Of a stretch of 64,000 nucleotides of DNA, positions 11,519 through 33,158 are shown in pieces; positions within the stretch are counted from its first letter, which is position 1, and each line of letters begins with the position of its first letter. Origin of the DNA: a virus. Position numbers and translations under genes: made by a program. Location: positions 1 through 64,000 of the IMG/VR virus record IMGVR_UViG_3300046714_000360; one strand, 5' to 3'. The notes under the pieces are model-generated. The model made no database searches. It worked only from the letters and a program-made list of their open reading frames with translations, and was not told the origin of the DNA.

Positions 11519-11546
11519 GGATCATTGTTAGAATTAAGGAGATGTA

Positions 11547-16501: not shown

Positions 16502-16503
16502 TC

Positions 16504-18721: not shown

Positions 18722-18724
18722 CTC

Positions 18725-19108
18725 GTGCGTTTCATCGATCAAGCCCAACCAAGCAGCCTGAGTCGTAGGCTAGTGCGTTCGACTGTGCTTCAAACTGAAG
18801 GTGGTGTGAGGTTGTTAGCTAGCACAGCACCACCAACTGTTGTGCCTACGCCTCCCAAGACTCGCGAGGTCGAAGAGCATAAGCCTATCTTTCAGCTTCA
18901 TATAGTGCATGTGGCAGATGAAGTACGCCGCATTCGCAAAGGTGATGCAGAGAAGATTAGTTTGACTAAGGACTATGAACCGTTTCCCAAAGGTGTTGGT
19001 GGTGGCTACAAGACTACAATCTACCATGGCGTTGAGGCCTCCACTAAGAAGACCATTGTAATCACAAATGCCGAGGGCACAAAGGTAGTTAGAACCGAGA
19101 AGCTGTAA
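18725..19108 (+). CDS. hypothetical protein, 127 aa (GTG start)
   Basis: AGGAGG SD; ORF track. Confidence 0.55.
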   Translation: MRFIDQAQPSSLSRRLVRSTVLQTEGGVRLLASTAPPTVVPTPPKTREVEEHKPIFQLHIVHVADEVRRIRKGDAEKISLTKDYEPFPKGVGGGYKTTIYHGVEASTKKTIVITNAEGTKVVRTEKL

Positions 19109-19109
19109 A

Positions 19110-19637: not shown

Positions 19638-19648
19638 AGGAGAAGTAT

Positions 19649-20314: not shown

Positions 20315-20328
20315 AAAGAGGAGCAAGT

Positions 20329-23217
20329 ATGAAACGGATTGTTAACGCCATCGACGAGTACCTAAAGACTCATGACATTTGGGGCAGGCGGAAAGTTCCA
20401 GTTGAGCTAGAAGCCTCTCAGGAGCTTGATGAGTATCTTAAGACACACGATATCCATGGGAATCTGTTAATGACTCCCGCTACTCCCGATGTAGGCAATT
20501 CTGAACATGAGGAGAGCCTACCGCTACCTGCAGAATTCTATGAGCCCACTTCCCGTAGGCGCACAAGGAAGCCTACTCTCAGTCAACGTGTCGCTGTGTT
20601 TGTTATTTTGGCTACTTGCTTTTTAGCAGCTTTCACAGTAACACAGTTCGATCTGTCTACACAAGTGAAAGGTAAGCTGCCCCAAGCCAGTTTGCCAGAT
20701 ACACTTGATGCTCCTTATTGGGGTAATGCTCCAAGGTTCGATGCATCAGATGCGAAGTTTGCTGGTGCTGATATGTGTGGCAATCTTGTGAATGTGTTGT
20801 CTGATGCTACTTACCTTGCCGCCACAGCAGCTATCATTGATGCCACAGGTTTTGCAGGCGCACAGAATTGTACTACAAATCCGTTTCCTGCTACAGCTCA
20901 TCCGACAAAATGGATGTTTGGTTCTTCTTTACATGTCAACTTGACTGTTTTAGCGACTACTGTCGCACCACCGCCCACAGCTTCTGTGTTAACTGTTCCC
21001 GGCACACCAGGTTTGTCAACTTCTACTAGTGGTGGTTCTCTTGGTGCCTCTGCAGGCATTGGTGTTAAGACTGAATGGGAGTCTGTCTATAATCCAAGTA
21101 CGCCTTCAGCGGAAGGCACTATCACTACCGGCGCAGGTGCTACCAATAGTGTGACTGTTACATCTCCTACTAGTCCGCCATTTGGTGCTGTATGCTATGA
21201 TGTGTTCTCTGCAACGCCTGTAGGGAGTGGCTGGAAAAAGACAAATACAAATTGTATTCCGCTAGGTACGAATTTCGTTATCAAGACGATAGGGGCTGGT
21301 GCTGTTCCTGCAACCTCTAATAATGCGACCGTAGATACCTTTGAGGTTGACGGTGGTGGGTCTACTTGGTCATTGAATAATTCCGCCGCTGCATTGTCTA
21401 TTGGAACCGATGGCACCTATTTCCATGATTTGAATGTAGTCACTTCAGGTACATCAGCAAATGCTACAGGCTCTGTATACATCAATCAGAACGTGCAGTA
21501 CGCGATGATGGAAAGGATATCGTGTTCAGGTGGTGGTCACTGCATTCGTATGGATGCTAATGACTCTCACATCACGCTTAGAGACATCCACTGTAATGTT
21601 CCTACGACGTCGGCGAGTTGTATAGTCGCTGCCAATGGCAATTCAGATTTACGGATTTATAATGTGTTAGAAGACAATTCTGTAATTGCTACTGGCGGCA
21701 ATCTCCAAGGCGTTATTAATTTGAATGGTGCTACAGACTTTATTGTAGATGGTGTCATTGCCAGAGGCCTAGACTTTTCAAATATTACTAATGCAGCTGC
21801 GATCATTATTCAGAATAGCACTCGTGGCATCGTCACAAATTTTCAGTGTAAGGATCTTGTCAATTCAGATTGTGTTGCCGTACTTGCATTCTCGTCATTC
21901 ATTAACATCAGTAATGGAATTGTTACTGGCACAACTGTAGGTGCAGGTGCAGGTGTTGGTGCAAACAGTAATAACGGTGATGCAATAGATGTGTTCGGCG
22001 CCGGGCCAGTGCAAATCTCTAATGTGTATGCTAGTGGTTTGGGCCTTGTTGGTGGCAATCGTTTCCCGTGTTATGAATTCTACGACTCTAATCAGGTTGT
22101 AGCTACCAACATAACGTGTACAGGTTCTACAGGTGAAGGCGTAAACATGTTCGGCTGTACAGGCTGCAAGATTGATAATTCCACTATGACTCTGAACGGG
22201 AAGTCAGGGCTTTTGGCACAAGATGGGACAGCAACAGTTAGTTGTAATGGGACTACTACAGTCACGCGCACTGCAGGTTTTCCTTTCGGGCCCTGGCCAG
22301 TTGGTACGTCGATTACCATCAATGGCGTTGCACATACCATAGCAGTGGTGCCTACAGTTGATACTGTTCTTACGACAGCTGCTAACTGTACCACTGGTGC
22401 AGGACAGGCATTTATAATCTCTACGCAAGATACATCGCTCGGGAATGATCAGTTCGATGACAATGGAACTGCCTCAGTATCTGCTACGAGTTGTTCAGGT
22501 GTTGATCTTCTTGGCAGTAGCAATGTTAGTGTAGAAGGTGGCTCAGCGAATGATAATCATCCGACTGCCACTAAGAAGCAGTGTTTCGCAATTAACGCGA
22601 GTGGTGCAGGATCTTCTTTCAGTGCTTTTGCTTTTGACCCTTCTGGGAATCTCGGAGGTACTTGCTCTAACGAAGTAGGGCCTGCTGTTGCGGGTGACCA
22701 TTGGTTGTGTGACATTCCAAAGAAGAGTGCATTCAGCCTACGTGATCCAGGATCAGAGACCATCTTTACGAGTAATGTGAAACGTGTTACTGCCAATGTT
22801 ACGAACGGCTCGACGACGATGGCCAATTTGACTGGTATGGTTTGGAGTATAGGCGCTAGTAAGAAGTACAAAATTGAGTGTGATTTTATTTATCAGGCAG
22901 CCTCCACAGGTGGTTTGCAAATAGCCTTTACAGGTCCTGCATCACCTACACAGGTGGAGTACTGTATGCATGCAGACAGTTCTGCTACTGCATTAAATGA
23001 TGGAACTGCGTGTACGCCAGCTGCTAATGCGTCTTTTGCCACTAAGGTAGGTGCAGGTGTAGTGGCCACCATTAATACTAACTTCCCTGCTCGCTTTTCT
23101 GGTGTGATAGAGAACGGTACCTCTGCAGGGACTTTGCAAGTTCAGTTTGCCAGCGCCGCTGCTGTGAACACAATTGTCGAGCGCGGCTCATCTTGCGGTT
23201 TGTGGTCGATCAACTAA
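20329..23217 (+). CDS. tail fibre/tailspike-like protein with parallel beta-helix-like repeats, 962 aa
   Basis: VTQFDLSTQVKGKLP motif; long run of short N/G/T/V-rich repeats (..NVLEDNSVIATGGNLQGVINLNGATDFIVDGVIARG..). Confidence 0.7.
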   Translation: MKRIVNAIDEYLKTHDIWGRRKVPVELEASQELDEYLKTHDIHGNLLMTPATPDVGNSEHEESLPLPAEFYEPTSRRRTRKPTLSQRVAVFVILATCFLAAFTVTQFDLSTQVKGKLPQASLPDTLDAPYWGNAPRFDASDAKFAGADMCGNLVNVLSDATYLAATAAIIDATGFAGAQNCTTNPFPATAHPTKWMFGSSLHVNLTVLATTVAPPPTASVLTVPGTPGLSTSTSGGSLGASAGIGVKTEWESVYNPSTPSAEGTITTGAGATNSVTVTSPTSPPFGAVCYDVFSATPVGSGWKKTNTNCIPLGTNFVIKTIGAGAVPATSNNATVDTFEVDGGGSTWSLNNSAAALSIGTDGTYFHDLNVVTSGTSANATGSVYINQNVQYAMMERISCSGGGHCIRMDANDSHITLRDIHCNVPTTSASCIVAANGNSDLRIYNVLEDNSVIATGGNLQGVINLNGATDFIVDGVIARGLDFSNITNAAAIIIQNSTRGIVTNFQCKDLVNSDCVAVLAFSSFINISNGIVTGTTVGAGAGVGANSNNGDAIDVFGAGPVQISNVYASGLGLVGGNRFPCYEFYDSNQVVATNITCTGSTGEGVNMFGCTGCKIDNSTMTLNGKSGLLAQDGTATVSCNGTTTVTRTAGFPFGPWPVGTSITINGVAHTIAVVPTVDTVLTTAANCTTGAGQAFIISTQDTSLGNDQFDDNGTASVSATSCSGVDLLGSSNVSVEGGSANDNHPTATKKQCFAINASGAGSSFSAFAFDPSGNLGGTCSNEVGPAVAGDHWLCDIPKKSAFSLRDPGSETIFTSNVKRVTANVTNGSTTMANLTGMVWSIGASKKYKIECDFIYQAASTGGLQIAFTGPASPTQVEYCMHADSSATALNDGTACTPAANASFATKVGAGVVATINTNFPARFSGVIENGTSAGTLQVQFASAAAVNTIVERGSSCGLWSIN

Positions 23218-23227
23218 AGGAGGCCCT

Positions 23228-23512
23228 ATGGGCGCCGGAGTATTAGGCGAGTATAATTTTATTTATGCTGACTACTCGCCATTGCAGCAAGATCCATCAG
23301 CACCAGCGACTATCATGTGCAATGTCTCATACACTGAGCCGTCGACTGGTACAGACTTTGGCTTTAAGGCGTTTTACATCACAGTGGCTATCGGTGATAC
23401 TCCTGCTGATACCACTGCCAATATCAGGGCAGAGATTCTCAGAAAGATCAATGAAGACAATGAGACCAGTTATGTCGATGCTGATCTCCAGCTTCGTGCA
23501 AATCTAGATTAA
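23228..23512 (+). CDS. hypothetical protein, 94 aa
   Basis: AAAGGAGG SD before ATG23228. Confidence 0.55.
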   Translation: MGAGVLGEYNFIYADYSPLQQDPSAPATIMCNVSYTEPSTGTDFGFKAFYITVAIGDTPADTTANIRAEILRKINEDNETSYVDADLQLRANLD

Positions 23513-23521
23513 TCCAACGAG

Positions 23522-23977
23522 GTGGCTGTGGACGCTGTTATAGTCAAGAAGACGTTAGTAGAAACGCCTAGCGGTAGGATAGAGATAATTCATAATGGTG
23601 TGTTTACAGTGCTTCAGTACAACACATCTTGTGAAGATGCTCTGCCCTACTGCAAAGGCATGTGTTGTGGTCTTCGTGCTGGCTACAATGTTCTATTAAA
23701 ACCAGGTGAAGAAAAAGAGTTTGAGTCCATTCCTCACCCTATGTACCTTGGACGATACATGCTTGCATCTGACCCAAAAGACATGCACTGTGTCTATCAG
23801 GATAAGATGAACGGATTCTGTACAATACACAGTAACAAGCCGCAAGGCTGCCGCGATTGGCATTGCTCTCCAGGCGGGCAAGGTGAGGACGTTGTGAAGC
23901 GAGATCTCGGTTGGTTCCTAAGTCCGATGCAAGGCAATCTGCAAGACAAGGAGATCAAAGATGCCGAACTTGCTTGA
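23522..23977 (+). CDS. Cys-cluster protein of the YkgJ/FliB (CxxCxxCC-like) type, 151 aa
   Basis: CEDALPYCKGMCCG and HCVYQDKMNGFCTIHSNKPQGCRDWHC resemble the UPF0153 pattern; spacing is not canonical. Confidence 0.45.
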   Translation: MAVDAVIVKKTLVETPSGRIEIIHNGVFTVLQYNTSCEDALPYCKGMCCGLRAGYNVLLKPGEEKEFESIPHPMYLGRYMLASDPKDMHCVYQDKMNGFCTIHSNKPQGCRDWHCSPGGQGEDVVKRDLGWFLSPMQGNLQDKEIKDAELA

Positions 23978-24776
23978 AGCCGTTTCCGCACAGCTTCCAC
24001 AAGATGTTGTGTTACATGCTGTGTCTAACTCGAAAGTGAATGGGAAGGACGACAAAGTCATGCTCACTCATAGTCTCGGTGTGAGTAGAGAGCCTGACGA
24101 TGCTCACAGAGAGTTGAACTCACTCGGTTACACAGTGACACGTGCGTCAACAGTCACACATCAGAACGTTGCCAAGCCTGGCAGTACGCGCCAGCTGACA
24201 CCACAAGGCACACAGACCTGGAAGTACAATCATCCGCAGGGTTACAAGGCCGAGATGAACATGCGGGACAGTGGCGGTACTTCTGTCATGATCAATGGGC
24301 CACGTCATCACCATGAACGCTTTCGGGATCGCATGGACATGAAGCCACATCCTGAGTTCAAGAAGATGGATGCAGACAAAGCCAAGGCCACACAAGACGC
24401 CAAGAAACCAAAGGTGCGTGTTGATGCACGCAGCGATGTTGAGCTTGCCTTATCCCGTAGCCACTTGTATGTGAAAGCAGGCGGGCCTGGCAGCGGGCGT
24501 CATCCAGGTGCTTTAAAAGATGCTGGCTTCAAGAAAGACAACGGTATCAGCCGTCGGGCAAGTTCTGCCACTCAAGAGAATCACTATCAGCATGCGAATG
24601 GTGCTTATTATAAGGTCACTCGCAATGTGGACCAAGCTGGAAAACAGACAGATGTGAAAAGCTGGCGTCACATGAGTCAAGACAGTAAGTCTACTAAAGG
24701 AGATGGCGAGGCTAGTCTAGTTGCCCATATAAAGAACACAGGTAGACAAGGCATCAGTCGTTACGAAACAAAGTAA
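23961..24776 (+). CDS. hypothetical protein with GGPGSGR motif, 271 aa
   Basis: KAGGPGSGRHPG at nt 24477-24509; AAGGAG SD. Confidence 0.65.
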   Translation: MPNLLEAVSAQLPQDVVLHAVSNSKVNGKDDKVMLTHSLGVSREPDDAHRELNSLGYTVTRASTVTHQNVAKPGSTRQLTPQGTQTWKYNHPQGYKAEMNMRDSGGTSVMINGPRHHHERFRDRMDMKPHPEFKKMDADKAKATQDAKKPKVRVDARSDVELALSRSHLYVKAGGPGSGRHPGALKDAGFKKDNGISRRASSATQENHYQHANGAYYKVTRNVDQAGKQTDVKSWRHMSQDSKSTKGDGEASLVAHIKNTGRQGISRYETK

Positions 24777-24777
24777 G

Positions 24778-25032
24778 ATGTCTGTGCTCAAGATCCAGTC
24801 CGTGATAGACAATCGTTACCGGCAGCTTAGGCTGAAGGTGATTCGCGGAGAGATGTCTGTAGAGGAATGCAAGACTAGGCTGCAAGCTAGGTTTACTGCT
24901 TGTGTTAGTCTACAGCGCCAGCGAGGAGACTTGTATCTCTCTTCTGCTGCGAAGAGGAGTTTCGCCTATTCAGCTAAGGTTGAGGCAGCTGCAGATAGAG
25001 AATGGTTAGGAAAGAAGGAGGACAATGAGTAA
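24778..25032 (+). CDS. hypothetical protein, 84 aa
   Basis: ORF track; starts 1 nt after upstream stop. Confidence 0.5.
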   Translation: MSVLKIQSVIDNRYRQLRLKVIRGEMSVEECKTRLQARFTACVSLQRQRGDLYLSSAAKRSFAYSAKVEAAADREWLGKKEDNE

Positions 25033-25801
25033 TCGATTAGCAACGTTCAGTGGGAAGTTTGGAGATATCTTGTGGTCACTTGCCACAGTCCGGCAGCTTG
25101 CACTCCGTTACAACAAGCAGCTCGATTTTGCGTGTATGCCACAGTATGTGTCGCTCATTCCGCTTATCCTTAATCAGGAGTACATTGACCACGCGTTCGT
25201 ATTGAATGAATGGACATGTACTGGTTCTCCGCACGGTGATCAGCCGTGGCAAGCACCAGTTTCGAATTTAGCCTATGAGGAAGTGTTTCACCTAACTTAC
25301 CAGCGGCATCCATCGCCGACGCCCCTAGCGCTGTTTATCGCACAACAAAACGGTGTCCAGTTGGATGGCTCACCCTTCTTAGACACACAACATTGGGAAC
25401 AATGGGCCAAGGGTGTTGCTGCACAGACTCCCTATATTGCTTATGCCTTTAATCCGTTGCACGCCGAGCAGAAGCTACAGTTTCTAGCGCAGCTACAGGT
25501 GCTTTGCAAACAAGGTGGTGAAAGTAATCCGCTTTGGGGATTCGAGTTTCTAGATCTTACTCAGTATGAATGGGTACAGACACCAGCTCTTATAGATAGT
25601 GCGCTTGCCTTTGTCGGGTGCAGGTCTGCGAACTACGTGATCGCTCACGGTGTAGGGCAGAAGGTGGTGTGCTACGAACCAGAACCGTGGCGCACTGAAT
25701 GTACATATGGTTATCCGTATGGTACAGAAAAGCTTTGCATGAATTCAGAAGTAGCCCATGCTCAGTTGCTTGAATGGGTGAAGGACTGGAAACCAATTTA
25801 A
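25025..25801 (+). CDS. GT9 (heptosyltransferase)-like glycosyltransferase, 258 aa
   Basis: GAAGGAGG SD; FGDILWSLATVRQL and C-terminal LAFVGCRSANYVIAHGVGQKVV resemble GT9 motifs. Confidence 0.5.
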   Translation: MSNRLATFSGKFGDILWSLATVRQLALRYNKQLDFACMPQYVSLIPLILNQEYIDHAFVLNEWTCTGSPHGDQPWQAPVSNLAYEEVFHLTYQRHPSPTPLALFIAQQNGVQLDGSPFLDTQHWEQWAKGVAAQTPYIAYAFNPLHAEQKLQFLAQLQVLCKQGGESNPLWGFEFLDLTQYEWVQTPALIDSALAFVGCRSANYVIAHGVGQKVVCYEPEPWRTECTYGYPYGTEKLCMNSEVAHAQLLEWVKDWKPI

Positions 25802-25812
25802 GGAGAAGAAGT

Positions 25813-26259
25813 ATGCGTTTGATGAAGCCGAGTCCAGGAGAGGCGTATGACCGCATTACAATCCTGAGCTTAAAAATTCAAGCTGCACAAGGAAGAGGTC
25901 TGCTAACATCTAAAGCTGTGTTCGAGGAAGAGCACAGCGCATTAGTCGACTACATGATCGAGAAGCATTACACAGTGCCGACTGGTCTCGGTGATGAGAT
26001 GTTCAAGATCAACAGTCGGCTTTGGGACTTGGAGGATCAGCAACGGGAAATTTTAGCTCGTATCACAGATCCCTTGAGATGCGAGGAGCCGTATGCATAC
26101 AGCTTCTTGAACAATGCTATTACTGTCCTCCGGTTGAATGATGCCCGCGCAGAGACAGTGCAGAAGATCAATGCTGCTTGCGGAGTCAACGCACCAGAAA
26201 AACTTCACTACGTGAAGGAGTCTCAGATTGCAAACGCTGATCAAGACCATTCAGGCTGA
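25813..26259 (+). CDS. hypothetical protein, 148 aa (LWDLED motif)
   Basis: TAAGGAG SD before ATG25813; motif is reminiscent of DUF4254 from memory only. Confidence 0.5.
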   Translation: MRLMKPSPGEAYDRITILSLKIQAAQGRGLLTSKAVFEEEHSALVDYMIEKHYTVPTGLGDEMFKINSRLWDLEDQQREILARITDPLRCEEPYAYSFLNNAITVLRLNDARAETVQKINAACGVNAPEKLHYVKESQIANADQDHSG

Positions 26260-26944
26260 GGACCATGAGTTCATCAAGGATGAAGCAGCAGAGATTGCTG
26301 GGGTAGCTACTTCACTCGAACGGCAAGGCATTCGTTGCGATGTAGGACATCCAGAACGCTTTTGGGAGTATGGCTTTGCTCTTCAAACGCTTAGAGGAAT
26401 ATATCCTCAGCTACAAGGTCGTCAGGTTTTGGATGTAGGTGCAGGCTGGAGTCCTTTAGGGCCAACGTTGGCTGGTAGTCGTGTTCTGGTGTCAGAAGTA
26501 GAAATTGATTTTGCATGTTATCCAGAGCGTAAGAAAATCAATGAGCTACTTGGGTACTCAGGTTATAGCGCTATCAATTGGATTCAAGGTACAGCAAGCA
26601 GTATGCAACAACATGCCGAGCTCTTTGATGCAGTGTTCTGTATATCAGTCATGGAGCACGTAGACAGGGCGTACGAGTTGAAGATGTGGGCAGACCTTGC
26701 TAAGCTTGTAGCTCCAGGTGGTTTGTTATTTATCACTTGCGACTGTGTTCCTGACCGTGGACCTAAGGTGTTTGACAATCTGCGACAGACAAACTATATG
26801 ACACAGGATCTTATGGCACGGATAAGTAATCTCGAGTCCAACTATCAGATGGAGCCGTTACTCGGGCAGCCTGATTATGATTATCATGGCAATTTTGTTT
26901 ATGACTACACGTTCTTTATGGCTGCCATGAGGAAGAAGCTATGA
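26228..26944 (+). CDS. class I SAM-dependent methyltransferase, 238 aa (TTG start)
   Basis: VLDVGAGWSPLG (motif I), FDAVFCISVMEHV, VAPGGLLFIT; AAGGAG 8 nt upstream of TTG. Confidence 0.7.
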   Translation: MQTLIKTIQAEDHEFIKDEAAEIAGVATSLERQGIRCDVGHPERFWEYGFALQTLRGIYPQLQGRQVLDVGAGWSPLGPTLAGSRVLVSEVEIDFACYPERKKINELLGYSGYSAINWIQGTASSMQQHAELFDAVFCISVMEHVDRAYELKMWADLAKLVAPGGLLFITCDCVPDRGPKVFDNLRQTNYMTQDLMARISNLESNYQMEPLLGQPDYDYHGNFVYDYTFFMAAMRKKL

Positions 26945-27885
26945 GGGTAGGTCTCATCACAACTTGGGAGGAGCGTTGCGGTATCGCTGAGTATGCTAAG
27001 AATCTCGTTAACAGTGTGACTGCTCTAAACGATGGTGTCACATTTGAGGTGCTTGACGTACGTCAGTCTCAGGCAGCTATTCACGCTGCAACTATTTCAT
27101 GTGATGTAGTCGTGTTCAATTATGAGCCAGGGTTGTATCAGCATCTGCCAATAGTTGAGATGGTGCATCTGTTGAGGCGTACACAGAAAGCTTGTATTTT
27201 AATTCTGCACACGTCACATGCAGGCGACAACAGGAGCGTACTAACAGCACCATTCACCAGAGTTGTTGTGCATGAGAAGACGCAGGACGGTTTTGTCCAT
27301 ATTCCGATGGGCGTGCCAGCGCCGTCGCCTCGTGTAAGGGACGTTGTTCCAAATCTTGTAGGTACTGTCGGTTTTCCATTTCCTTGGAAAGGATTTGACA
27401 TTGTTGCTCAAGCTACAGCGAAGCTAGATCTTATGTGCCTAGTTATCGCACCAGACTCTCCCCATTGGGATACGTATGCAGTTGCTAAATATCTCCGCGA
27501 ACAAAATCCTAACTTGTCTGTAAATACAGCATGGAACTCACAGGAAGATGTTGTAGAGATGCTTAGTCAGTGTGCAGTAAATGTGTTTGCTTACTCAGGG
27601 CACCCAGCAGGGATCAGTGGCGCAGTTAAGCTAGGTGTTGCTGCCCAGCGTCCTTTGGTCATTTCCACATGCAGGCAGTTCAGAGATATGTTAGAGTACT
27701 ATCCAGAAGAGGTGTATGTCGCTGATCCGTTGTCTGTAGATACTGTTGTGGAACAGATCCAGTTAGCGCTGTACACAAGAAAGTTTCCAGTTAGAATGTT
27801 ACAAGAAAATGCTTGGCCTGTGGTAGCTTCCATGTACCGTAACGTTTATCTTGAAGCATTAACTGAGGTGAGAGGATGCTTGTAA
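26941..27885 (+). CDS. GT-B glycosyltransferase (GT4-like), 314 aa
   Basis: ATGA overlap; MRVGLITTWEERCGIAEYAKNL N-terminus typical of GT4 enzymes. Confidence 0.65.
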   Translation: MRVGLITTWEERCGIAEYAKNLVNSVTALNDGVTFEVLDVRQSQAAIHAATISCDVVVFNYEPGLYQHLPIVEMVHLLRRTQKACILILHTSHAGDNRSVLTAPFTRVVVHEKTQDGFVHIPMGVPAPSPRVRDVVPNLVGTVGFPFPWKGFDIVAQATAKLDLMCLVIAPDSPHWDTYAVAKYLREQNPNLSVNTAWNSQEDVVEMLSQCAVNVFAYSGHPAGISGAVKLGVAAQRPLVISTCRQFRDMLEYYPEEVYVADPLSVDTVVEQIQLALYTRKFPVRMLQENAWPVVASMYRNVYLEALTEVRGCL

Positions 27886-29192
27886 AACATTGGACGCATT
27901 GTAGAGTTTGTCAGAGTTCCCCGCTTGCGAGTGTTATTAAGTTCGGTTCTCAGCATATTGTTGGTTTTCCAGAACATGTTGCCTTAGGAGAGAGTGCACC
28001 ACTTGATTTGGTGTTGTGCACGAAATGTGGATTGCTTCAGCTAGAGGATTCCGTCGATGCTTCGTTCTTGTTCAGGCACTTTTGGTATCAGTCAGGTATT
28101 AACGAGCAGATGAAAGCTGCACTGTCTGAAGTTGTTAACAAAGCAGTCCAGATTGCCGCTCCTGTTCAAGGAGATGCTGTGCTTGATATAGGTTCCAATG
28201 ACGGCACATTGCTTAGTTTTTATCCTGCTGGTGTATTGCATAGAGTAGGAGTAGAACCAGCAGAGAATATAGAACAGATCGATAAGTCGTCTGATGTACT
28301 TGTCCATGAGTTCTTTTCCAAAGCTGTTGGTGTGCTTTCTAATTGTCAGTTCAAGATCATAACTGCTATTGCGATGTTCTATGATCTCGATGACCCAGCA
28401 GAGTTTCTACAAGGCGTTAGGCAGGTGCTTGCTCCTAATGGCGTATTGATCATTCAAATGAATGCTCTCAGTGTTATGTTGAAGAACTTAGCTTTCGACA
28501 ATATCTCGCATGAGCATGTGTGTTACTATTCGTTGACCACTCTCAAGTTCCTTGCTGAAATTTGTGGCTTTGACGTAATCGATGTTTCTGAGAACTCTGT
28601 CAATGGTGGTAGTCTTCGAGTTTATTTGATGCAGCGAGGTGCCATGCCTGATGGCATTACTGATGTAGAATTCATGCAAGGCCGTGCACGTGTACATCTT
28701 ATGCTGAAGGAAGAGGCAACAGCTGAGTTGCTGTCACCTGTTACGTATAAAAGGTTCCAAAGTAAGATCACTGCTATACAGACTGAGGTAAATCGCTTTG
28801 TGCATACCGTTGTTGCCAAAGATAAAAAGGTTTGTTTATATGGTGCGTCTACCAGAGGCACTATGTTGATGCAGACTCTCAATATAGCCAATTACGTATT
28901 AGGTGCTGCAGAAAGGGATGCGAAGAAGTACTATCGTACGATGGCAGGCACTGCTGTGAGGATATTCCCAGAAGCGTTACTCAGAACTGTTGCTGACTAT
29001 TTTGTTGTACTGCCATGGCATTTTCTTCCGTCCATTCTCGAACGCGAAAAAGAATGGGGCAAACGAGGAGGACGTTTCGTTGTACCATTACCAGAGCCCA
29101 GGATGTATATGTGCAGTGAAGGTCCTGAAGGAGAGTGGATTTGGAATTCTCTACCGTTGGGCGATGAGTTGTATAATCAAGTAGGACTTTAA
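27876..29192 (+). CDS. NDP-sugar C-methyltransferase-like protein (zinc knuckle + SAM MTase + C-terminal domain), 438 aa
   Basis: CRVCQS..LVLCTKCGLLQL, VLDIGSNDG, TylC3-type three-domain layout. Confidence 0.75.
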   Translation: MLVKHWTHCRVCQSSPLASVIKFGSQHIVGFPEHVALGESAPLDLVLCTKCGLLQLEDSVDASFLFRHFWYQSGINEQMKAALSEVVNKAVQIAAPVQGDAVLDIGSNDGTLLSFYPAGVLHRVGVEPAENIEQIDKSSDVLVHEFFSKAVGVLSNCQFKIITAIAMFYDLDDPAEFLQGVRQVLAPNGVLIIQMNALSVMLKNLAFDNISHEHVCYYSLTTLKFLAEICGFDVIDVSENSVNGGSLRVYLMQRGAMPDGITDVEFMQGRARVHLMLKEEATAELLSPVTYKRFQSKITAIQTEVNRFVHTVVAKDKKVCLYGASTRGTMLMQTLNIANYVLGAAERDAKKYYRTMAGTAVRIFPEALLRTVADYFVVLPWHFLPSILEREKEWGKRGGRFVVPLPEPRMYMCSEGPEGEWIWNSLPLGDELYNQVGL

Positions 29193-29200
29193 GGAGGAAG

Positions 29201-30193
29201 ATGAAAGCATTGATTACAGGCTGTTGCGGACAGGATGGTTACTATCTGAGTAAGTATCTTATGTCACTTGGTTATGAAGTCTGGGGAGGTGCACGGCATA
29301 CGCGTCCTGATCTAACCGTCAATTGGGTATTTCTCGATCTGAAGTTTCATGACACTGTCCAAAGTGCTATTCGCAAAGCCGATCCTGATGAGATTTACAA
29401 CCTAGGTGGGCAGTCATTTGTTCCCCCAAGTTGGATTCGCCCAGATGAGACGTTTGATACGAACACGTCTGGCCTTGCTCGCATTCTCGAGTTTGTTGAG
29501 GGGTATAATCCTAAGATCAAGGTGTACCAAGCATCTAGCTCAGAAATGTTTGGTAATGTCGCTGGCTTCTTGGATGAGGAAGCTAGGATGGCACCAGCTT
29601 CACCGTATGGCATTAGCAAGCTTGCTTCCCATGAACTCTGTCGTGTGTATAGGCAGAAAGGACTGTTCATTGTCAGTGGCATCTGCTTTAATCACGAATC
29701 ACCGGAACGTGGTCCTGAAATGGTGACACGGAAAATCACACAAAAAGTAGCCAAGTGGAAGTTAGGTGATGAGACGCCGTTGCATCTTGGCTCTTTGTCT
29801 CCATATCGTGATTGGGGATTTTCTGGCGACTATGTTAAAGCAATGCACATGATGTTGCAGCAAGCCATACCAGAAGATTATGTGGTAGCCACAGGAGAGA
29901 CGCATACTATTCAGGAGTTTATGGATAAAGCGTGTGCGTATGCTGGTGTGACACCGCGCATTGAGGTTGATCCACGTTTCTTACGAGCTGGTGAGATAAA
30001 GATGCTTTGTGGCAACTCGATGAAAGCGCGTAGGACGTTTGATTGGGCGCCTACTGTCAGTTTTGAGCATCTCGTTCATATGATGGTCGATGCTGATGTT
30101 GCACGAGAGACTGAACGAGTCAGCTCGTTCACTACACAAGAGTGTGTCAATGCAGCGACTGACGCTGTAATAAATTCTTTTGAAAGGAGGTAG
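29201..30193 (+). CDS. gmd: GDP-mannose 4,6-dehydratase
   Basis: ITGCCGQDGYYL, YNLGGQSFV, SSSEMFG, SPYGISKL, FNHESPERG, VTRKIT, RDWGF; colinear with E. coli Gmd as recalled. Confidence 0.9.
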   Translation: MKALITGCCGQDGYYLSKYLMSLGYEVWGGARHTRPDLTVNWVFLDLKFHDTVQSAIRKADPDEIYNLGGQSFVPPSWIRPDETFDTNTSGLARILEFVEGYNPKIKVYQASSSEMFGNVAGFLDEEARMAPASPYGISKLASHELCRVYRQKGLFIVSGICFNHESPERGPEMVTRKITQKVAKWKLGDETPLHLGSLSPYRDWGFSGDYVKAMHMMLQQAIPEDYVVATGETHTIQEFMDKACAYAGVTPRIEVDPRFLRAGEIKMLCGNSMKARRTFDWAPTVSFEHLVHMMVDADVARETERVSSFTTQECVNAATDAVINSFERR

Positions 30194-30196
30194 ACT

Positions 30197-30391
30197 ATGC
30201 CATTGAGTTATCATCCACGCATTCGTGCTTTGCAAGAAGCACAAGAGCTTGCAGGCGTTATTAAGCCTGCGAACAGTGTCGCTGTAGCAAACCTGCTCAG
30301 CGCAGAAGCACAAGGTCAGAAGAAAAAGACTGTGCCTGTTGTCGTGTTCAGTTTCAGCGGCGGCAAGGCAGTCAGATACACAGCAGCATAA
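30197..30391 (+). CDS. hypothetical protein, 64 aa
   Basis: AAAGGAGG SD; ORF track. Confidence 0.45.
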   Translation: MPLSYHPRIRALQEAQELAGVIKPANSVAVANLLSAEAQGQKKKTVPVVVFSFSGGKAVRYTAA

Positions 30392-30400
30392 AGGTGCCAC

Positions 30401-31321
30401 ATGGATCTAGCCGCAGCAGTTGCGTTACAAGGCGCAGCTCACAAGTTGGATGGGCGGACAGAGTTCCAAGGTCTCAAGATCAGTATTGAGAACGAAGTGG
30501 GCTCTGTCCGTCGTGGTGTGAATAAGAAGACTGGTAAAGCCTGGGAGACGCGTATGCGTTATCCGTATGGCTACATCAGGCTCACACAGGGCGTTGACGG
30601 AGATCACGTTGACTGTTTCCTCGGTCCTCATAAGCATGCTCGCTATGCGTATGTGATTCATCAGAATAATCCTAATACTGGCAAGTACGACGAAGACAAG
30701 GTGATGCTCGGCTTCACGTCAGCCACTGCTGCGAAGGCTGCGTACAATGTGCATTATGACCAGCCTTGGAAGTTCTATGGTTCTATGGATGAGGTGCTCA
30801 TGGAGGATTTCATTCGGAAGGTGCTCACTACAAAAGACAGGCCGAAAGTAATCAAGGCTCAGCGGCTAGTGTTGCGTGCAGGTGGGCCTGGTAGTGGTTG
30901 CCACGGTGAGAATTGTGGCAGACCACCTAAGTTTCAAGACGTGATTGATAAGAAGTACTTACGTGCGGGAGAGAAGGCAGGTTACGAAAATGTAAAGCAA
31001 CAGTTTCAGAATTCCACTATCGAATATAAGACTGTAGACAGTGCCAGCATAGAGCGTCAGAATACAGATTTGACACAGTCTGCCGTTGCTCGTTGGGAAA
31101 AGAAGATCAATGATGGTAAGGATATCCCAGCATTCGTTGTTGCTCCTAAAGAGCATGGTGGTTATTTTCTATTAGACGGGCATCATAGGTTAGAAGCTTT
31201 AGGTAAAGATCAGCCTGTTCGTATCGCAGTACTTCAGCCGAAAGTTGGTTGGCATTGGACGCGGCATGTTAGTATGCGTACTCGTGAGATTTGGATGGAT
31301 CTAGAAAGGGAGGAAGTATGA
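30401..31321 (+). CDS. multidomain protein: pyrophosphatase-like N-domain, GGPGSGC..CGRP linker, ParB-like nuclease C-domain, 306 aa
   Basis: YPYGYIRLTQGVDGDHVDCF (family-I PPase-like); RAGGPGSGCHGENCGRPPK at 30878-30931; FLLDGHHRLEAL (ParB/Srx DGHHR). Confidence 0.65.
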   Translation: MDLAAAVALQGAAHKLDGRTEFQGLKISIENEVGSVRRGVNKKTGKAWETRMRYPYGYIRLTQGVDGDHVDCFLGPHKHARYAYVIHQNNPNTGKYDEDKVMLGFTSATAAKAAYNVHYDQPWKFYGSMDEVLMEDFIRKVLTTKDRPKVIKAQRLVLRAGGPGSGCHGENCGRPPKFQDVIDKKYLRAGEKAGYENVKQQFQNSTIEYKTVDSASIERQNTDLTQSAVARWEKKINDGKDIPAFVVAPKEHGGYFLLDGHHRLEALGKDQPVRIAVLQPKVGWHWTRHVSMRTREIWMDLEREEV

Positions 31322-32028
31322 TTGCAGTGCTCACTGCCGTGCTAGGAAGCAAGTTCGGGAAGTACTTTGTTGAATTGGGTGTAGTGGGAGGTCTTGTATT
31401 CGGGGCATATTGGTATGCTGTGAATCATGGTAAGGCTGTTCAGAAGGACGAAGACAACAAGGTGCAAGCACAGGAGCTCGAGAAAGCTCGGCAGGTAGGC
31501 GCTGATGCGAAAGACCTTTTGGTTAAGCAGGCACATGACCACGAGCTAGAAGCAGACCAGCGCGCTCAAGAAGATCGTGCCAAGAACGCTGCACTTGTGT
31601 CTGTTCTGCAAGGGTTAGGTGTAAAAGAAAAAGAAGGAAAGACTCAAGTGAGTCAGTTGCCAGATTCTGAGCTACGGAGTGACATCATACACAAGCTTAG
31701 TGTGCGCGCTGCGAATGATATGACTGCTTGCTATCTGCCTTCTGAGGAACGTGTGCTCGATAATGCGATTACTCAGTACCCTTTATGTGTGCAAGGCAAG
31801 GCAGTACTCACAGAACAGGTGACTACGAAAGAGCACGAGGTACAGGATCAAGTTGTCATGGCCTCTTCTAAGCAGGCGACTATTGATGCTTTGCAGGTGT
31901 ACATCACACAGTTAGAAAAAGATTATAAGGTATTGTACGATCAGCATCCTCCAAAGAAGAGATCGATCAAGTGTTTGTTCATTTGGAAGTGTGCGATTAT
32001 CCCAACCAACATTGTCGTTGCCAAGTAG
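31318..32028 (+). CDS. membrane-anchored coiled-coil-like protein, 236 aa
   Basis: AGGGAGGAAG SD before ATG31318; N-terminal hydrophobic IAVLTAVLG..VVGGLVFGAYWYAV. Confidence 0.6.
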   Translation: MIAVLTAVLGSKFGKYFVELGVVGGLVFGAYWYAVNHGKAVQKDEDNKVQAQELEKARQVGADAKDLLVKQAHDHELEADQRAQEDRAKNAALVSVLQGLGVKEKEGKTQVSQLPDSELRSDIIHKLSVRAANDMTACYLPSEERVLDNAITQYPLCVQGKAVLTEQVTTKEHEVQDQVVMASSKQATIDALQVYITQLEKDYKVLYDQHPPKKRSIKCLFIWKCAIIPTNIVVAK

Positions 32029-32037
32029 GAGGCAGTC

Positions 32038-32253
32038 ATGGATCACCGTACAGCTGTCGCTCTTTATGATCCACCATCTTCAGAGAAGACAGGTCCTGGT
32101 GGTTGACTGATCAAAATAGGCGACCGCGTGACGGTCGATAGTGCGAAGAATCAAACAGGTGTAGTGCTTAGCCGCAAAGGGAGAGAGCTCACAGTACAAA
32201 TGAACCCGTCCGGTGACAAGGTTACCGTTGACCAGCGTGAGGTGCATCTGTGA
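32038..32253 (+). CDS. KOW-like small protein reading frame interrupted by in-frame TGA (32104-32106): recoding, split ORFs or pseudogene
   Basis: AGGAGG SD + ATG32038, 22 codons, TGA, then 48 in-frame codons LIKIGDRVTVDSAKNQTGVV..; no ATG after the TGA. Confidence 0.4.
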
Positions 32254-33158
32254 ATCTCCAAACTTATATGTCATTGTATGCAGGAGGTCCTGGTAGTGGA
32301 TGTACAGGTAGCAACTGTGGCAGACCAGCAGGAAGCAGTTCTTCAAATGAACATAAAGCGGGTGACCATGTGTACTCTGTGCATCAGTACACTGCTGATA
32401 AAGGTGTCATTGAAAAAACGAGTGGCCCTTGGCATCTTATCAGTACTCCTACTAAAGGCAGTCAAGTTTTCCATGATAAGGAGCTTACCAAAGTTCCAAG
32501 GTCTGTTCATAATGTGGAGATGGTTGCACGGCTTAGTACTGTAGTGGATGATGCTATTACTCGGTTTGCTGCTCAACAGCTTCGTGATACAGCGGAGCCT
32601 GTAAAGTATTCCCATCAAGCTAAGGCACAAGCTAGGCAGAATAGGGAGTACAATAATGATATGTTACTGAATAGATACATTGTCGGTAACAGGCTAGTCG
32701 ATGTAGTCCACTCTCTTGCAAAAAGTAATCCTGCTGCGTTTGCACAAGCGCTGAAAGCTAATCAGATCTTTCATAGGGAAGAAGCTCGCCGTTCATCTGA
32801 AGACTCGTTTAGGCACACTGACAATGTGAAGGTGATGGGAGAACAGCTCAAAGGGTTGCAGCTACTTAGAGAAGCGCTTACTACAGTGCAGCATACAAGT
32901 CTTAAGAGCGATGCTGATATTGCTGTTTATCATATGGAAGGGTTCCCTGCCTTTCATCCGCCATCGCTAAAGAATCCACAGCACATACCAGCTGATCAGC
33001 CTGGAGAGACTGACGACCGTTTCTTGGATGTCACCAAACGTAAGTCGCGTGAGAATGCATTATTCAATGACCAGCTAACGAGGAACCAAGGACAGCCTAC
33101 AACGGTGCGGACTACCTTGGTAGAACCCGGCACTTATGTTCCCTTTGATAAGTTATAA
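32250..33158 (+). CDS. hypothetical protein with N-terminal GGPGSGC..CGRP motif, 302 aa (GTG start)
   Basis: YAGGPGSGCTGSNCGRPAG at 32280-32333; GTGA overlap with upstream stop. Confidence 0.65.
   Translation: MNLQTYMSLYAGGPGSGCTGSNCGRPAGSSSSNEHKAGDHVYSVHQYTADKGVIEKTSGPWHLISTPTKGSQVFHDKELTKVPRSVHNVEMVARLSTVVDDAITRFAAQQLRDTAEPVKYSHQAKAQARQNREYNNDMLLNRYIVGNRLVDVVHSLAKSNPAAFAQALKANQIFHREEARRSSEDSFRHTDNVKVMGEQLKGLQLLREALTTVQHTSLKSDADIAVYHMEGFPAFHPPSLKNPQHIPADQPGETDDRFLDVTKRKSRENALFNDQLTRNQGQPTTVRTTLVEPGTYVPFDKL

Follow-up and report, generated by a model that had tools for sequence, protein, structure and literature searches.

The 64,000-nucleotide stretch analyzed here (the window) belongs to an uncultured phage of approximately 120 kb and contains a sugar gene set immediately 3′ of the putative tail-fiber genes. 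The region from 17819 to 32028 is an array of 18 genes on one strand, with gaps of at most 15 nt and several overlaps; promoter-like and terminator-like sites are not enriched there. All eight open reading frames (ORFs) originally predicted downstream of the fiber were recovered on the plus strand at the coordinates given below, and an independent gene caller concurs. The genes are real, but their description as lying back to back overlooked a 94-aa ORF (23228–23512) between the 962-aa protein and the first of the eight, an 84-aa ORF (24778–25032, plus strand) that overlaps the 5′ end of the GT9-like gene, and a GT2 glycosyltransferase gene 3.6 kb downstream of the island (33846–34550, plus strand). 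The 84-aa product shows 51% identity to its counterpart in the sibling phage L083, and ORFs of 81–84 aa also precede the GT9-like gene in relatives L087 and L088. The eight products are 55–83% identical to those of L083, the island proteins and their structural neighbors being equally conserved. No island protein possesses a TM-like segment; all are soluble. Lipid-carrier machinery is absent from the island, and neither in the block nor in its flanking genes was a flippase, polymerase, ligase, or polyprenyl-phosphate transferase seen.

Upstream lie genes for a 221-aa putative proximal fiber protein (19649–20314, plus strand), which is outside the enzyme set, and a 962-aa putative tailspike or fiber, that is, a receptor-binding protein (20329–23217, plus strand); both are candidate acceptors. 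They are rich in Ser, Thr, Gly, Asn, and Ala (54% and 50%, respectively, against a window mean of 32%) and share the motif TQFDL(T/S)TQVKG.LP, which follows a hydrophobic helix. The 962-aa protein has no direct match in Pfam, PHROG, PDB, or GenBank phages; its homologues carry Beta_helix (PF13229) and Collagen (PF01391) domains which, taken with the composition of the two proteins, make the fiber reading a reasonable one. The 221-aa protein is 65% identical in L083, where a pair of unrelated proteins (448 and 257 aa) replaces the 962-aa protein; the distal fiber thus differs wholly between these phages, while the island is conserved.

The first two of the eight genes had been counted within the sugar island, a membership that proved not to be demonstrable. 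The product of the first (149/151 aa; 23522–23977, plus strand) has a Cys cluster and does match the predicted YkgJ/CxxCxxCC-like family (PF03692), at a value (3e-4) below the cut-off, and its family assignment is weak. Its identity to the L083 counterpart is 83% and to that of L085 47%, with no counterpart detected in L087–L089, and its place in the sugar module is uncertain. The 271-aa protein encoded next (23961–24776, plus strand) has no family match. Its AGGPGSGR motif is common to three other window proteins, its conservation in L083 is limited to the N-terminal 133 aa, and it is probably not a sugar enzyme.

The last of the eight genes (29201–30193, plus strand) is assigned with strong support to a short form of GDP-mannose 4,6-dehydratase (Gmd). 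The predicted product matches GDP_Man_Dehyd (PF16363, 3.8e-89) and, as best PDB entry, the Pseudomonas aeruginosa enzyme 1rpn (8.5e-74); among the eleven best PDB matches, ten are deposited as GDP-mannose 4,6-dehydratase, and the remaining one bears just a target code. The protein retains the catalytic S-x-E, YxxxK, and NHESPxRG. To call it near-textbook was slightly generous, since it scores 257 on the NCBIfam equivalog model, whose cut-off is 415. Immediately upstream (27876–29192, plus strand) is what is, again strongly, predicted to be an NDP-hexose C-methyltransferase of the TylC3/TcaB9/MtmC type. The anticipated three-domain architecture was found, with Methyltransf_13 (7e-11), Methyltransf_23 (1.6e-16), and Methyltransf_14 (3.7e-30) all exceeding Pfam gathering scores, as was the CxxC..CxxC zinc knuckle (C9/C12/C48/C51); the Glu–His catalytic pair E213/H214 aligns with E224/H225 of TcaB9, whose active-site residues Y76, H181, and Y222 are not conserved. 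Among solved structures, its best relatives are the C-3 methyltransferases MtmC and TcaB9 and entry 5t64, a "sugar 3-C-methyl transferase"; full-length matches are to MtmC (4rv9, 3e-42) and TcaB9 (5e-30). We take 4rv9, the best of these, to be the bifunctional TylCIII-type enzyme of S. argillaceus. Specificity for GDP and C3 regiochemistry are not readable from the sequence. A search of plus-strand window ORFs of at least 60 aa with Gmd and seven sugar-enzyme queries (four sibling-phage SDRs, GDP-fucose synthase, a cupin, and a sugar nucleotidyltransferase) matched only Gmd, which agrees with the original prediction that the window holds no recognizable 4-reductase or epimerase.

The expected profile support was obtained for GDP_Man_Dehyd and Methyltransf_13/14, but not for GT9, and only below threshold for the GT4-like gene; the two fold calls themselves are borne out by AF2 models with pLDDT values of 95–96. 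The compact 258-aa GT-B glycosyltransferase with a GT9-like fold (25025–25801, plus strand) has no match in Pfam, NCBIfam, or PHROGs, including the GT9 sequence model PF01075. Its model (pLDDT 96) retrieves with Foldseek WaaF (1psw, 1.7e-6), the Veillonella GT9 protein 3tov, and WaaC on top, followed by TibC. It shares the GT-B fold with the GT9 heptosyltransferases (WaaC/WaaF and the protein heptosyltransferases TibC/AAH), the family of its best structural matches, but is 60–90 residues shorter. Residues G13-D14 align with the invariant Gly-Asp of E. coli WaaC, WaaF, and WaaU, the Asp of which is presumably the catalytic base of WaaC (Asp13). Where these three have DTG/DSG, a motif position which we take to bind the donor, the phage protein has CRSAN, and its donor is therefore probably other than ADP-heptose. 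All of its 98 homologues come from metagenomes, including one from an NCBI MAG, and no Pfam domain is recorded for any of them. An LPS acceptor does not follow from the GT9-like fold: the earlier step from GT9 to host LPS fails on the unmatched GT9 model, the absent D-T/S-G motif, and the presence of TibC in the same fold search.

The second GT-B enzyme (314 aa, GT4-like fold; 26941–27885, plus strand) has a single, sub-threshold Pfam match. Its AF2 model (pLDDT 95) gives TM scores of 0.65–0.73 to GT4-type GT-B enzymes, and its top 50 Foldseek matches are retaining-type GT-B enzymes, among them BGluT (8e-10), a methylmannose-polysaccharide mannosyltransferase, GlgM, GtfA, BshA, AviGT4, SdgB, and WaaG; PglA is also a structural neighbor. 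As modeled, both assignments hold at the level of the fold only. The structural neighbors of the two include the protein O-glycosyltransferases TibC, GtfA, and SdgB. The downstream GT2 (GT-A) enzyme matches Glycos_transf_2 (1.8e-12), has no TM segment, is soluble, and is 80% identical in L083 at an unchanged relative position; it may act as a third transferase in this pathway. A further window glycosyltransferase, phrog_7162 (2.8e-36), lies between QueD and QueE-like radical SAM genes.

Two smaller proteins complete the block. The 148-aa helical "LWDLED" protein (25813–26259, plus strand) is DUF6165/DUF4254-like; its own DUF6165 match is weak, and the family is better supported by Pfam matches across the siblings (best 1.7e-7). 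Of 80 viral loci with the C-methyltransferase, 21 have such a gene, versus 2 of 80 cellular ones; it lies directly upstream of the C-methyltransferase in all ten viral loci whose layout was listed, and is found once in a natural fusion with TPR and Glyco_transf_9. Its product may be a partner of the C-methyltransferase, of the GT9-like enzyme, or of both. The class I SAM-dependent methyltransferase (26228–26944, plus strand) was correctly recognized (Methyltransf_11, 1.2e-6, above the cut-off). It is UbiG-like (2.6e-9), with UbiG O-methyltransferases as best PDB matches, is conserved in all siblings and in L075, and is putatively a sugar O-methyltransferase.

The core block (25025–30193) is kept, in the same place after putative fiber genes, in at least six divergent uncultured phages of approximately 120 kb. 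Its recurrence in five relatives beyond the sibling phage, together with the 55–83% identity to the latter, argues that the clustering is not due to chance. In the window, L083, L087, L088, and L089, it directly follows at least two large ORFs, taken as putative fiber genes, which themselves follow a lysozyme-type gene; L085 and L086 have an expanded version in the same region. In three cases (the window, L083, and L088), an InPase gene lies on the 3′ side of the block. Among IMG/VR viral loci, Gmd is near the C-methyltransferase in 54–58 of 80 (56 within fetched flanks of up to 10 kb; 58 and 54 within 6 kb); of 80 cellular loci, 29 have it within 7 kb. DUF6165-, GT4-, and GT9-like genes accompany the pair far more often in viral loci than in cellular genomes: GT4-like homologues are found in 19 of 80 viral C-methyltransferase loci, and a compact GT9-like gene stands beside a cellular C-methyltransferase in one of 80. 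The order Gmd, DUF6165-like, C-methyltransferase, unknown X, GT4-like recurs in nine unrelated viral loci, and in a tenth whose contig ends upstream before any Gmd. In 29 of the 80 viral loci, Gmd and the C-methyltransferase have no GT9-like, GT4-like, or DUF6165-like gene nearby. On unrelated viral contigs the cassette sits among FkbM, DegT, WavE, and B12-radical-SAM genes (Pfam), and NeuB- and CMP-NeuAc-synthetase-like genes recognized by eye only. The gene set is a recurrent cassette of uncultured viral contigs and not unique to this phage. No description of such phage gene sets was found in the literature searched; the Gmd–C-methyltransferase pair exists in DSL-LC02, a metagenome-assembled Synechococcus phage in GenBank.

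The cluster of DSL-LC02 comprises Gmd, C-methyltransferase, GDP-fucose synthase, FkbM, and eight genes with a glycosyl- or glucosyltransferase annotation. Unlike the window, it has a GMER reductase; it lies away from fiber genes, and its C-methyltransferase is 29.5% identical to the window's. The latter is annotated as a "methyltransferase domain-containing protein" and is undiscussed (PMC10611076). P-SSM2-type cyanophage "LPS-like" clusters likewise combine a phage Gmd with a run of glycosyltransferases and methyltransferases, the functions there and in the window being predicted ones. TylC3, EryBIII, TcaB9, and MtmC have the same three domains, zinc knuckle, and Glu–His dyad as the phage enzyme. 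The route proposed for Coxiella burnetii virenose (Gmd CBU0689, C-methyltransferase CBU0691, GMER CBU0688; PMC3539893) shares the pairing with Gmd, which implies GDP-4-keto-6-deoxymannose as substrate. By comparison with both, the window C-methyltransferase is phage-encoded, approximately 30% identical or less (estimated from alignments), without an adjacent epimerase or reductase, and accompanied by a DUF6165-like gene that is rare beside cellular homologues.

Viruses that glycosylate their virions, treated in work cited in PMC12619734, offer another comparison. Chlorovirus PBCV-1 encodes Gmd/GMER, A064R rhamnosyltransferases, and a methyltransferase and carries methylated deoxy-sugars on its capsid; mimivirus fibrils carry glycans; and mycobacteriophage capsid and tail-tube proteins are reportedly glycosylated (Freeman, 2023). 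Like the window, these viruses have their own soluble glycosyltransferases and a sugar methyltransferase, and the giant viruses also nucleotide-sugar tailoring enzymes. Their glycans are built in the cytoplasm on structural proteins, whereas the acceptor in the window is only a candidate. We know of no C-branched sugar in the three systems, and the fold matches of the window glycosyltransferases to aquatic-virus proteins, one from PBCV-1, are weak.

A C-methyl 6-deoxyhexose is quite likely what the module produces and transfers. Support is good for the biosynthetic half, and the originally proposed logic of Gmd plus a TylC3-type enzyme agrees with domains, motifs, structures, and the recurrent gene pairing (approximately 55 of 80 viral and 29 of 80 cellular loci). 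Gmd, given its strong family assignment, would convert host GDP-mannose to GDP-4-keto-6-deoxy-D-mannose, and the three-domain SAM enzyme would methylate a carbon beside the 4-keto group, most likely C3, where its solved relatives act, to give GDP-3-C-methyl-4-keto-6-deoxyhexose. As no dedicated reductase is encoded in the window, reduction of the 4-keto group is speculatively assigned to Gmd, the C-methyltransferase, or a host enzyme. The reductase step has no explanation in this genome's window, which counts against the pathway. Precedents exist: for virenose, a GDP route through Gmd, C-methyltransferase, and a reductase is proposed in PMC3539893, and bifunctional GMDs and an S. argillaceus TylCIII-type C-methyltransferase with 4-ketoreductase activity are reported in work cited there, making the missing 4-reductase a lesser problem. 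The GT9-like enzyme, with its DUF6165-like neighbor, and the GT4-like enzyme would then build a short glycan, to which the GT2 enzyme may contribute and which the class I methyltransferase would O-methylate.

The soluble island proteins and the lack of lipid-carrier genes favor an acceptor accessible from the cytoplasm. Virion proteins from the same uninterrupted array, for example those of 221 and 962 aa, are tentatively preferred, given the conserved position of the block inside the structural gene array, the equal conservation of island and structural proteins, the Ser/Thr-rich composition of the candidates, and the protein O-glycosyltransferases among the structural neighbors of both GT-B enzymes. 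As the distal fiber differs between siblings while the island is conserved, the acceptor would be a generic Ser/Thr-rich feature or a conserved protein such as that of 221 aa. Somewhat less likely, by our assessment, is remodeling of the host envelope, in which the soluble glycosyltransferases would add the branched sugar at the cytoplasmic face to LPS core, a lipid-linked O-antigen or capsule intermediate, or a surface protein (S-layer, pilin, or flagellin). It would suit the proximity of the GT9-like fold to WaaF and WaaC, enzymes of the cytoplasmic face, WaaG and PglA among the GT4-like neighbors, the WavE-like and other LPS-type sugar genes accompanying related viral cassettes, and the commonness of cellular C-methyltransferase–Gmd pairs, presumably serving surface glycans. 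The β-helix of the 962-aa family is typical of polysaccharide-degrading tailspikes and suggests a glycan receptor that could be masked, and cyanophage Gmd/glycosyltransferase clusters are usually read as host-surface modification (PMC10611076, PMC12801897). Yet membrane proteins, flippases, ligases, and polyprenyl-phosphate transferases are absent from the island; the GT9-like protein lacks both the GT9 sequence signature and the DTG/DSG of the E. coli enzymes; the rarity of DUF6165-like (2/80) and compact GT9-like (1/80) genes beside cellular C-methyltransferases points to virus-specific use; and the place within the structural array is conserved.

The presence of QueD and a QueE-like enzyme suggests that the phage probably modifies its own DNA with a 7-deazaguanine, and with phrog_7162 encoded between them, the island sugar might be attached to a modified base, evading restriction. 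We know of no DNA modification with a GDP-derived 6-deoxyhexose, and the island lies approximately 8 kb from that cluster, inside the structural array; hydroxymethylase, DpdA, QueC, and FolE were not found among those window ORFs that were scanned, the window being about half of the genome. This use is very unlikely, although DNA-glycosylating phage GT-B enzymes are well known, according to work cited in PMC12619734. Diversion of GDP-mannose, or glycosylation of a small molecule or non-structural phage protein, with fiber adjacency incidental, would accommodate the 29 of 80 viral loci in which Gmd lacks the accompanying genes, the antibiotic pathways of the nearest solved C-methyltransferases, and the weakness of synteny as functional evidence in a one-strand genome. 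The conservation of two or three glycosyltransferases and an O-methyltransferase with the synthesis genes across divergent phages points instead to a defined glycoconjugate, and genes for aglycone biosynthesis were not observed; we consider this explanation highly improbable.

Were the host envelope the target, the sugar would block superinfection by competitors or keep progeny from re-adsorbing to lysing cells. Taken as a whole, the reading of the island as a glycan unit within the late module, conserved in a deep-branching lineage of approximately 120-kb uncultured phages, with a virion protein as acceptor, is put forward with some reserve; if it holds, the receptor-binding apparatus of these phages would be coated with glycan.

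The island occupies positions 23522–30193 of the + strand. The eight ORFs first read there are present as listed, and an independent gene caller agrees on Logan SRR26075294_736 (60.5 kb), a public contig carrying this sequence. The island proteins were found again on a 124.7-kb JGI contig. Two small ORFs, at 23228–23512 (94 aa) and 24778–25032 (84 aa), were absent from the earlier list. A run of 18 genes on one strand (17819–32028), with gaps of at most 15 nt and several start/stop overlaps, encloses the island. Promoter-like and terminator-like sites between 15.5 and 35.4 kb show no excess over shuffled sequence, so no operon boundaries are obtainable from such a scan. The GC content of the island (0.45–0.49, against about 0.48 for the window) is unremarkable. 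The window was also considered as a wrapped circular genome; no terminal redundancy was found.

Profile analysis bore out the prediction of Gmd (29201–30193), which matches PF16363 (GDP_Man_Dehyd) at 3.8e-89 (299.9 bits against a cut-off of 27). For ten of its best eleven PDB matches the deposited name is GDP-mannose 4,6-dehydratase, the remaining one carrying a target code only; the top match is the short P. aeruginosa enzyme (1rpn). The protein falls below the NCBIfam equivalog TIGR01472 (257.5 bits; cut-off 415), and judged by its sequence the phage Gmd, short and divergent, resembles P. aeruginosa GMD in form. Alignment to 1rpn reveals that the catalytic T/S-x-E (ASSSEMFG) and YxxxK (SPYGISKLASH) are intact, that the NADP site GxxGxxG reads GCCGQDG, and that the NHESPxRG motif reads NHESPERG. 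The assignment is solid at the sequence level, and by homology the enzyme would make GDP-4-keto-6-deoxymannose.

The neighboring sugar C-methyltransferase (27876–29192) fared equally well, with three Pfam domains above threshold: an N-terminal Cys4 zinc domain (Methyltransf_13, PF08421; 7e-11, 42.6 bits against a cut-off of 31.3) in which cysteines C9, C12, C48, and C51 are all present, a central SAM-binding domain (Methyltransf_23, PF13489; 1.6e-16), and the C-terminal Methyltransf_14 (PF08484; 3.7e-30). Its full-length alignment pairs residues 6–410 with 10–415 of MtmC (3e-42); other solved relatives are TcaB9 (5e-30) and 5t64, the latter deposited as "sugar 3-C-methyl transferase." We take Y76, H181, Y222, E224, and H225 to be active-site residues of TcaB9. 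In a phmmer alignment the E224/H225 pair is kept as E213/H214, Y222 is replaced by S211, and Y76 and H181 are also not conserved. This assignment too can be called solid, and a TylC3-type enzyme would, by homology, methylate an NDP-4-keto-6-deoxyhexose at a carbon beside the keto group.

The proposed biosynthetic logic, Gmd followed by TylC3-type C-methylation, thus appears right by homology and gene context. The two enzymes would act in sequence on a GDP-sugar; this substrate is suggested by their adjacency here and by the presence of Gmd near the C-methyltransferase in 54–58 of the 80 best IMG/VR loci (the counts differ in reach: 6 kb, or flanks extending to at most 10 kb). Such a GDP route has been proposed for virenose (PMC3539893). 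As originally stated, no 4-reductase or epimerase is recognizable: the + strand ORFs of at least 60 aa include no second SDR or cupin when queried with sibling-phage SDRs, GDP-fucose synthase, and a cupin. A TylCIII-type C-methyltransferase of S. argillaceus is reported to have 4-ketoreductase activity, and bifunctional GMDs have been reported from K. pneumoniae, A. thermoaerophilus, and P. aeruginosa (all cited in PMC3539893). Of these, the P. aeruginosa GMD is the nearest to the one encoded by the phage. The closest PDB entry to the C-methyltransferase, 4rv9, is deposited as D-mycarose 3-C-methyltransferase and is presumably MtmC, the bifunctional S. argillaceus enzyme. Given these precedents, the missing 4-reductase would not be fatal; a host reductase might alternatively supply the 4-keto reduction. 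Two or three soluble glycosyltransferases and an O-methyltransferase could then build a short glycan.

The GT9-like and GT4-like labels stand at the level of the fold, where the models are confident, but not at that of sequence profiles, neither protein passing any model. The 258-aa GT9-like protein (25025–25801) has no match in Pfam, including Glyco_transf_9 (PF01075), in NCBIfam, or among PHROGs, and no Pfam domain is recorded for any of its 98 homologues. AlphaFold, working from a deep alignment, returned a compact GT-B with a pLDDT of 96. Foldseek ranks 1–9 are WaaF, WaaC, and a Veillonella GT9 (E 1.7e-6 to 4e-5; TMq 0.53–0.67), followed by the protein heptosyltransferase TibC. An N-terminal G13-D14 is invariant in seven aligned members of the phage family and E. 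coli WaaC, WaaF, and WaaU, as well as in the 50 phage-family members of alignment A1; we take D14 to be equivalent to the catalytic Asp13 of WaaC. Where the three E. coli enzymes have a C-terminal D-T/S-G, presumably the donor-binding motif of GT9, the phage family has G-C-R-S-A-N. Because of this replacement, the modeled protein is described as GT9-like in fold and not as a demonstrable member of GT9, ADP-heptose is an unlikely donor, and the step from GT9 membership to host LPS in the original prediction is not justified.

The 314-aa GT4-like protein (26941–27885) scores 22.6 bits against Glycos_transf_1/Glyco_trans_1_4, under the cut-off of 27, and only two of six siblings match these models at E up to 0.01. 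Its fold was resolved by structure prediction only: the model (pLDDT 95.3), likewise built from a deep alignment, is a two-Rossmann GT-B, and its top 50 Foldseek matches are retaining-type GT-B proteins (TMq up to 0.73), most of which we take to be GT4. Between the two glycosyltransferase genes lie those for the "LWDLED" protein (25813–26259) and a 238-aa class I, UbiG-like methyltransferase (26228–26944). The former reaches 20.9 bits against the DUF6165/DUF4254 models (cut-off 27); DUF6165 is matched by three of six siblings (best 1.7e-7) and DUF4254 by four of six, and the protein probably belongs to this superfamily. Nearly all of the 206 representatives of the DUF6165-like family are stand-alone; one is fused to TPR repeats and a Glyco_transf_9 domain, which fits the adjacency of the DUF6165-like and GT9-like genes in the window. 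When the PDB was searched with sequence profiles of the GT4-like and the DUF6165-like family, no meaningful match came up. The Cys protein (23522–23977) matches CxxCxxCC below threshold only, and no island protein has a TM-like or hydrophobic segment (maximum KD19 at most 1.63).

Megablast of the 16–34.6 kb region against GenBank phages returned zero matches, and TerL (42796–44565) is at most 28% identical to GenBank phages among the best-covered matches, with 31% over one half-length match. By these measures the phage is deep-branching, and with no close relative among GenBank phages, function cannot be borrowed from one. All 98 homologues of the 258-aa protein are metagenomic, several on contigs of about 115–125 kb. 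In the closest sibling phage (L083) the products of the entire block are 55–83% identical to those of the window, in the order Cys protein, a gene marked x, 82-aa ORF, GT9-like, DUF6165-like, methyltransferase, GT4-like, C-methyltransferase, Gmd, and 64-aa ORF; InPase and GT2 genes lie further downstream, and the distal fiber is swapped for unrelated proteins. More distant uncultured relatives (L085/L086, L087, L088, and L089; 37–46% identity) keep the core in the same genome region. In the last three it is preceded by a lysozyme-type gene and two large, presumably fiber, ORFs, and L088 has an InPase protein after the block. In some relatives the core is extended by a Gmd paralogue, a second GT4-like copy, an FkbM methyltransferase, a B12-radical-SAM enzyme, or a sugar nucleotidyltransferase. 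The extra SDR of sibling phages is a Gmd paralogue and not a clear RMD or GMER, and is thus of no help with the reductase step. Since the core is kept across relatives, with additions in some, the module appears to be a stable but tunable part of the phage lineage; a recent horizontal insertion is disfavored by this conservation and by the window-like GC content.

Several other genes in these phages deserve mention. L085/L086 encode a Sigma70_r2 protein (11192–11713; 173 aa) inside an expanded sugar island, next to a sugar nucleotidyltransferase, two extra SDRs, and a B12-radical-SAM enzyme. In the window a Vsr/DUF559/HNH-like endonuclease gene (33217–33849) separates the GT2 gene from those of the InPase region, and a similar one is found in the L085 island (16283–16969); both are probably mobile homing endonucleases. 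The sequence AGGPGSG(C/R), usually followed by x4-6-CGRP, occurs at 16693, 24480, 30881, and 32283 in four different proteins (16504–17577, 23961–24776, the InPase protein at 30401–31321, and 32250–33158) and again in sibling phages. It may represent a module that virion-delivered proteins have in common, serving in processing, targeting, or metal binding; a literature search on GGPGSG found nothing relevant. The 306-aa InPase protein (PF18823, 2.6e-43) has a weak ParB-like C-terminus. In PHROGs its InPase domain aligns with parts of giant polyvalent, DarB-like, and minor head proteins, and the proteins that contain the domain in siblings are larger (464 and at least 909 aa). The window also contains genes for a radical SAM/SPASM maturase-like protein (131–1198), tRNA-Arg (ACG; 34906–34982), a Cpn10-like protein just 5′ of TerL (42205–42753), an ATP-dependent DNA ligase (52217–53104), and a VWA-domain protein (54436–55887).

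An IMG/VR scan with the C-methyltransferase revealed 119 relatives (32–40% identity), the best 80 of which were used for neighborhood counts. Besides Gmd, a DUF6165-like gene is found in 21 of these 80 loci, a GT4-like homologue in 19, and a GT9-like one in 10; the DUF6165-like gene is directly 5′ of the C-methyltransferase in all ten layouts inspected. Nine viral loci possess the operon Gmd, DUF6165-like, C-methyltransferase, 316-aa protein, GT4-like, and a tenth has the same order, its sequence ending upstream before any Gmd. The 316-aa family (e.g., 4925–5875 of viral locus L032) is without a Pfam match, lies directly 3′ of the C-methyltransferase in 17 viral loci, and sits between it and the GT4-like gene where the latter is present; hhalign found it unrelated to either glycosyltransferase family of the window. 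GTDB genomes yielded 204 relatives, from CPR bacteria, DPANN, Bathyarchaeota, Planctomycetia, Methylobacterium, and others. Among the best 80 of these loci, Gmd is near in 29, a DUF6165-like gene in only two, and a GT9-like gene in only one. Compared with the viral counts, these figures suggest that the accessory DUF6165-like and GT9-like proteins are largely virus-associated. The cellular C-methyltransferases are 34–42% identical to the phage enzyme and common in CPR, DPANN, Bathyarchaeota/Micrarchaeota, and Planctomycetia, often with Gmd adjacent, a hint that many cell envelopes in those little-studied groups contain GDP-derived C-methyl sugars.

Only six GenBank phage records contain a C-methyltransferase homologue. 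Metagenome-assembled cyanophage DSL-LC02 resembles the window in possessing Gmd and a C-methyltransferase but has, in addition, its own GDP-fucose synthase and eight genes annotated as glycosyl- or glucosyltransferases; of these, the paper names no more than Gmd and fucose synthase, which it treats as auxiliary genes (PMC10611076). Literature searches on phage sugar C-methyltransferases and on DUF6165/DUF4254 found nothing relevant. The combination had first been read as one not assignable to a described phage system. In place of uniqueness, the IMG/VR and GTDB counts point to a cassette that appears recurrent and largely virus-specific, of which no description was found in the literature searched and which is carried by no cultured phage.

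With respect to the acceptor, we tentatively favor virion proteins, with rather less than even confidence. Wherever putative receptor-binding-protein genes are in view among the relatives, the module directly follows them, packed gaplessly into the same gene array, and in three phages an InPase gene comes after it; going by PHROG matches, polyvalent and minor head proteins contain InPase domains. The adjacent 221-aa (19649–20314) and 962-aa (20329–23217) proteins, the putative fiber or tailspike, are strongly S/T/G/N/A-rich, both glycosyltransferase folds have protein-O-glycosylating relatives, and there are precedents for virus-encoded virion glycosylation. For glycan attachment to capsid, tail, or fiber proteins, as in the mycobacteriophage and chlorovirus systems, the genes offer synteny with putative fiber genes, soluble glycosyltransferases, and S/T-rich candidate acceptors as pointers. 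Against virion proteins stand the distal fiber, which is not conserved where the island is, the occurrence of related cassettes elsewhere in "LPS-like" sugar islands, and the basis of the fiber identity itself, namely Beta_helix/Collagen domains in homologues and weak PHROG matches of a neighbor. The 962-aa protein has no match in the PDB, GenBank phages, Pfam, or PHROGs, and the N-terminal motif TQFDL..QVKG.L is absent from every other locus examined, so no acceptor-motif argument is possible. A strongly hydrophobic 19-residue helix (KD 2.5 and 2.2) directly precedes the shared TQFDL(T/S)TQVKG.LP in the 221-aa and 962-aa proteins, and in the JGI gene call the latter, at 873 aa, starts some 90 residues later, about at the helix. 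In appearance the segment is a signal peptide or membrane anchor, an odd feature for a tail fiber.

The main rival, remodeling of the host envelope at the cytoplasmic face, deserves serious consideration but we regard it as doubtful. The module has no membrane or lipid-carrier components, which favors virion proteins, and unlike Gtr-type seroconversion and LPS-modifying phages, with a GtrA flippase, GtrB, and a GT-C transferase or acyltransferase, the island is without such domains or hydrophobic segments. Glycosylation of DNA, a minor rival, is very improbable; what still speaks for it is a cluster of QueD, GT, and QueE genes located 8 kb downstream of the island. There, QueD (38066–38665; TIGR03367, 2.5e-25) and a QueE-like radical SAM protein (41026–41868; 1.2e-22) flank a glycosyltransferase and two ORFs (280 and 132 aa). 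The start of the glycosyltransferase gene (38662–39678; phrog_7162, 2.8e-36) overlaps the QueD stop, and its homologues lie beside replication genes in phi92-like coliphages. The region 38066–41868 suggests 7-deazaguanine DNA modification, possibly with a sugar; QueC, FolE, and DpdA were not seen among the ORFs scanned in the window.

Giant viruses are established as encoding their own glycan synthesis, as are mycobacteriophages, which draw on host sugars; to our knowledge, the many "LPS-like" sugar genes of most tailed phages are unexplained. With virion proteins as the acceptor, the complete scheme is that a tailed phage makes a C-methyl-branched, O-methylated 6-deoxyhexose, with which virus-specific minimal GT-Bs, one of them GT9-like with a DUF6165-like partner, glycosylate its own tail fibers or tailspikes. 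In its entirety we consider this possible but rather unlikely. If true, it would constitute a widespread, so far unrecognized virion-glycosylation system among uncultured phages of aquatic and other environments, and for the first time a virus would be seen to use a C-branched sugar, bringing branched sugars into viral glycobiology. The module is compact and conserved (six core genes), and its predicted product, a C-methyl deoxyhexose, is chemically distinctive at +160 Da per residue, so that the module is unusually tractable as a test case; the sugar should be makeable in vitro from GDP-mannose, and the candidate acceptors could be co-expressed with the enzymes. Confirmation would place two orphan families, DUF6165/DUF4254 and the compact GT9-like proteins, in a working context and help to tell whether it is the virion or the host that phage sugar islands decorate. 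Decoration of the virion would bear on receptor binding, stability, and immune or defense evasion.
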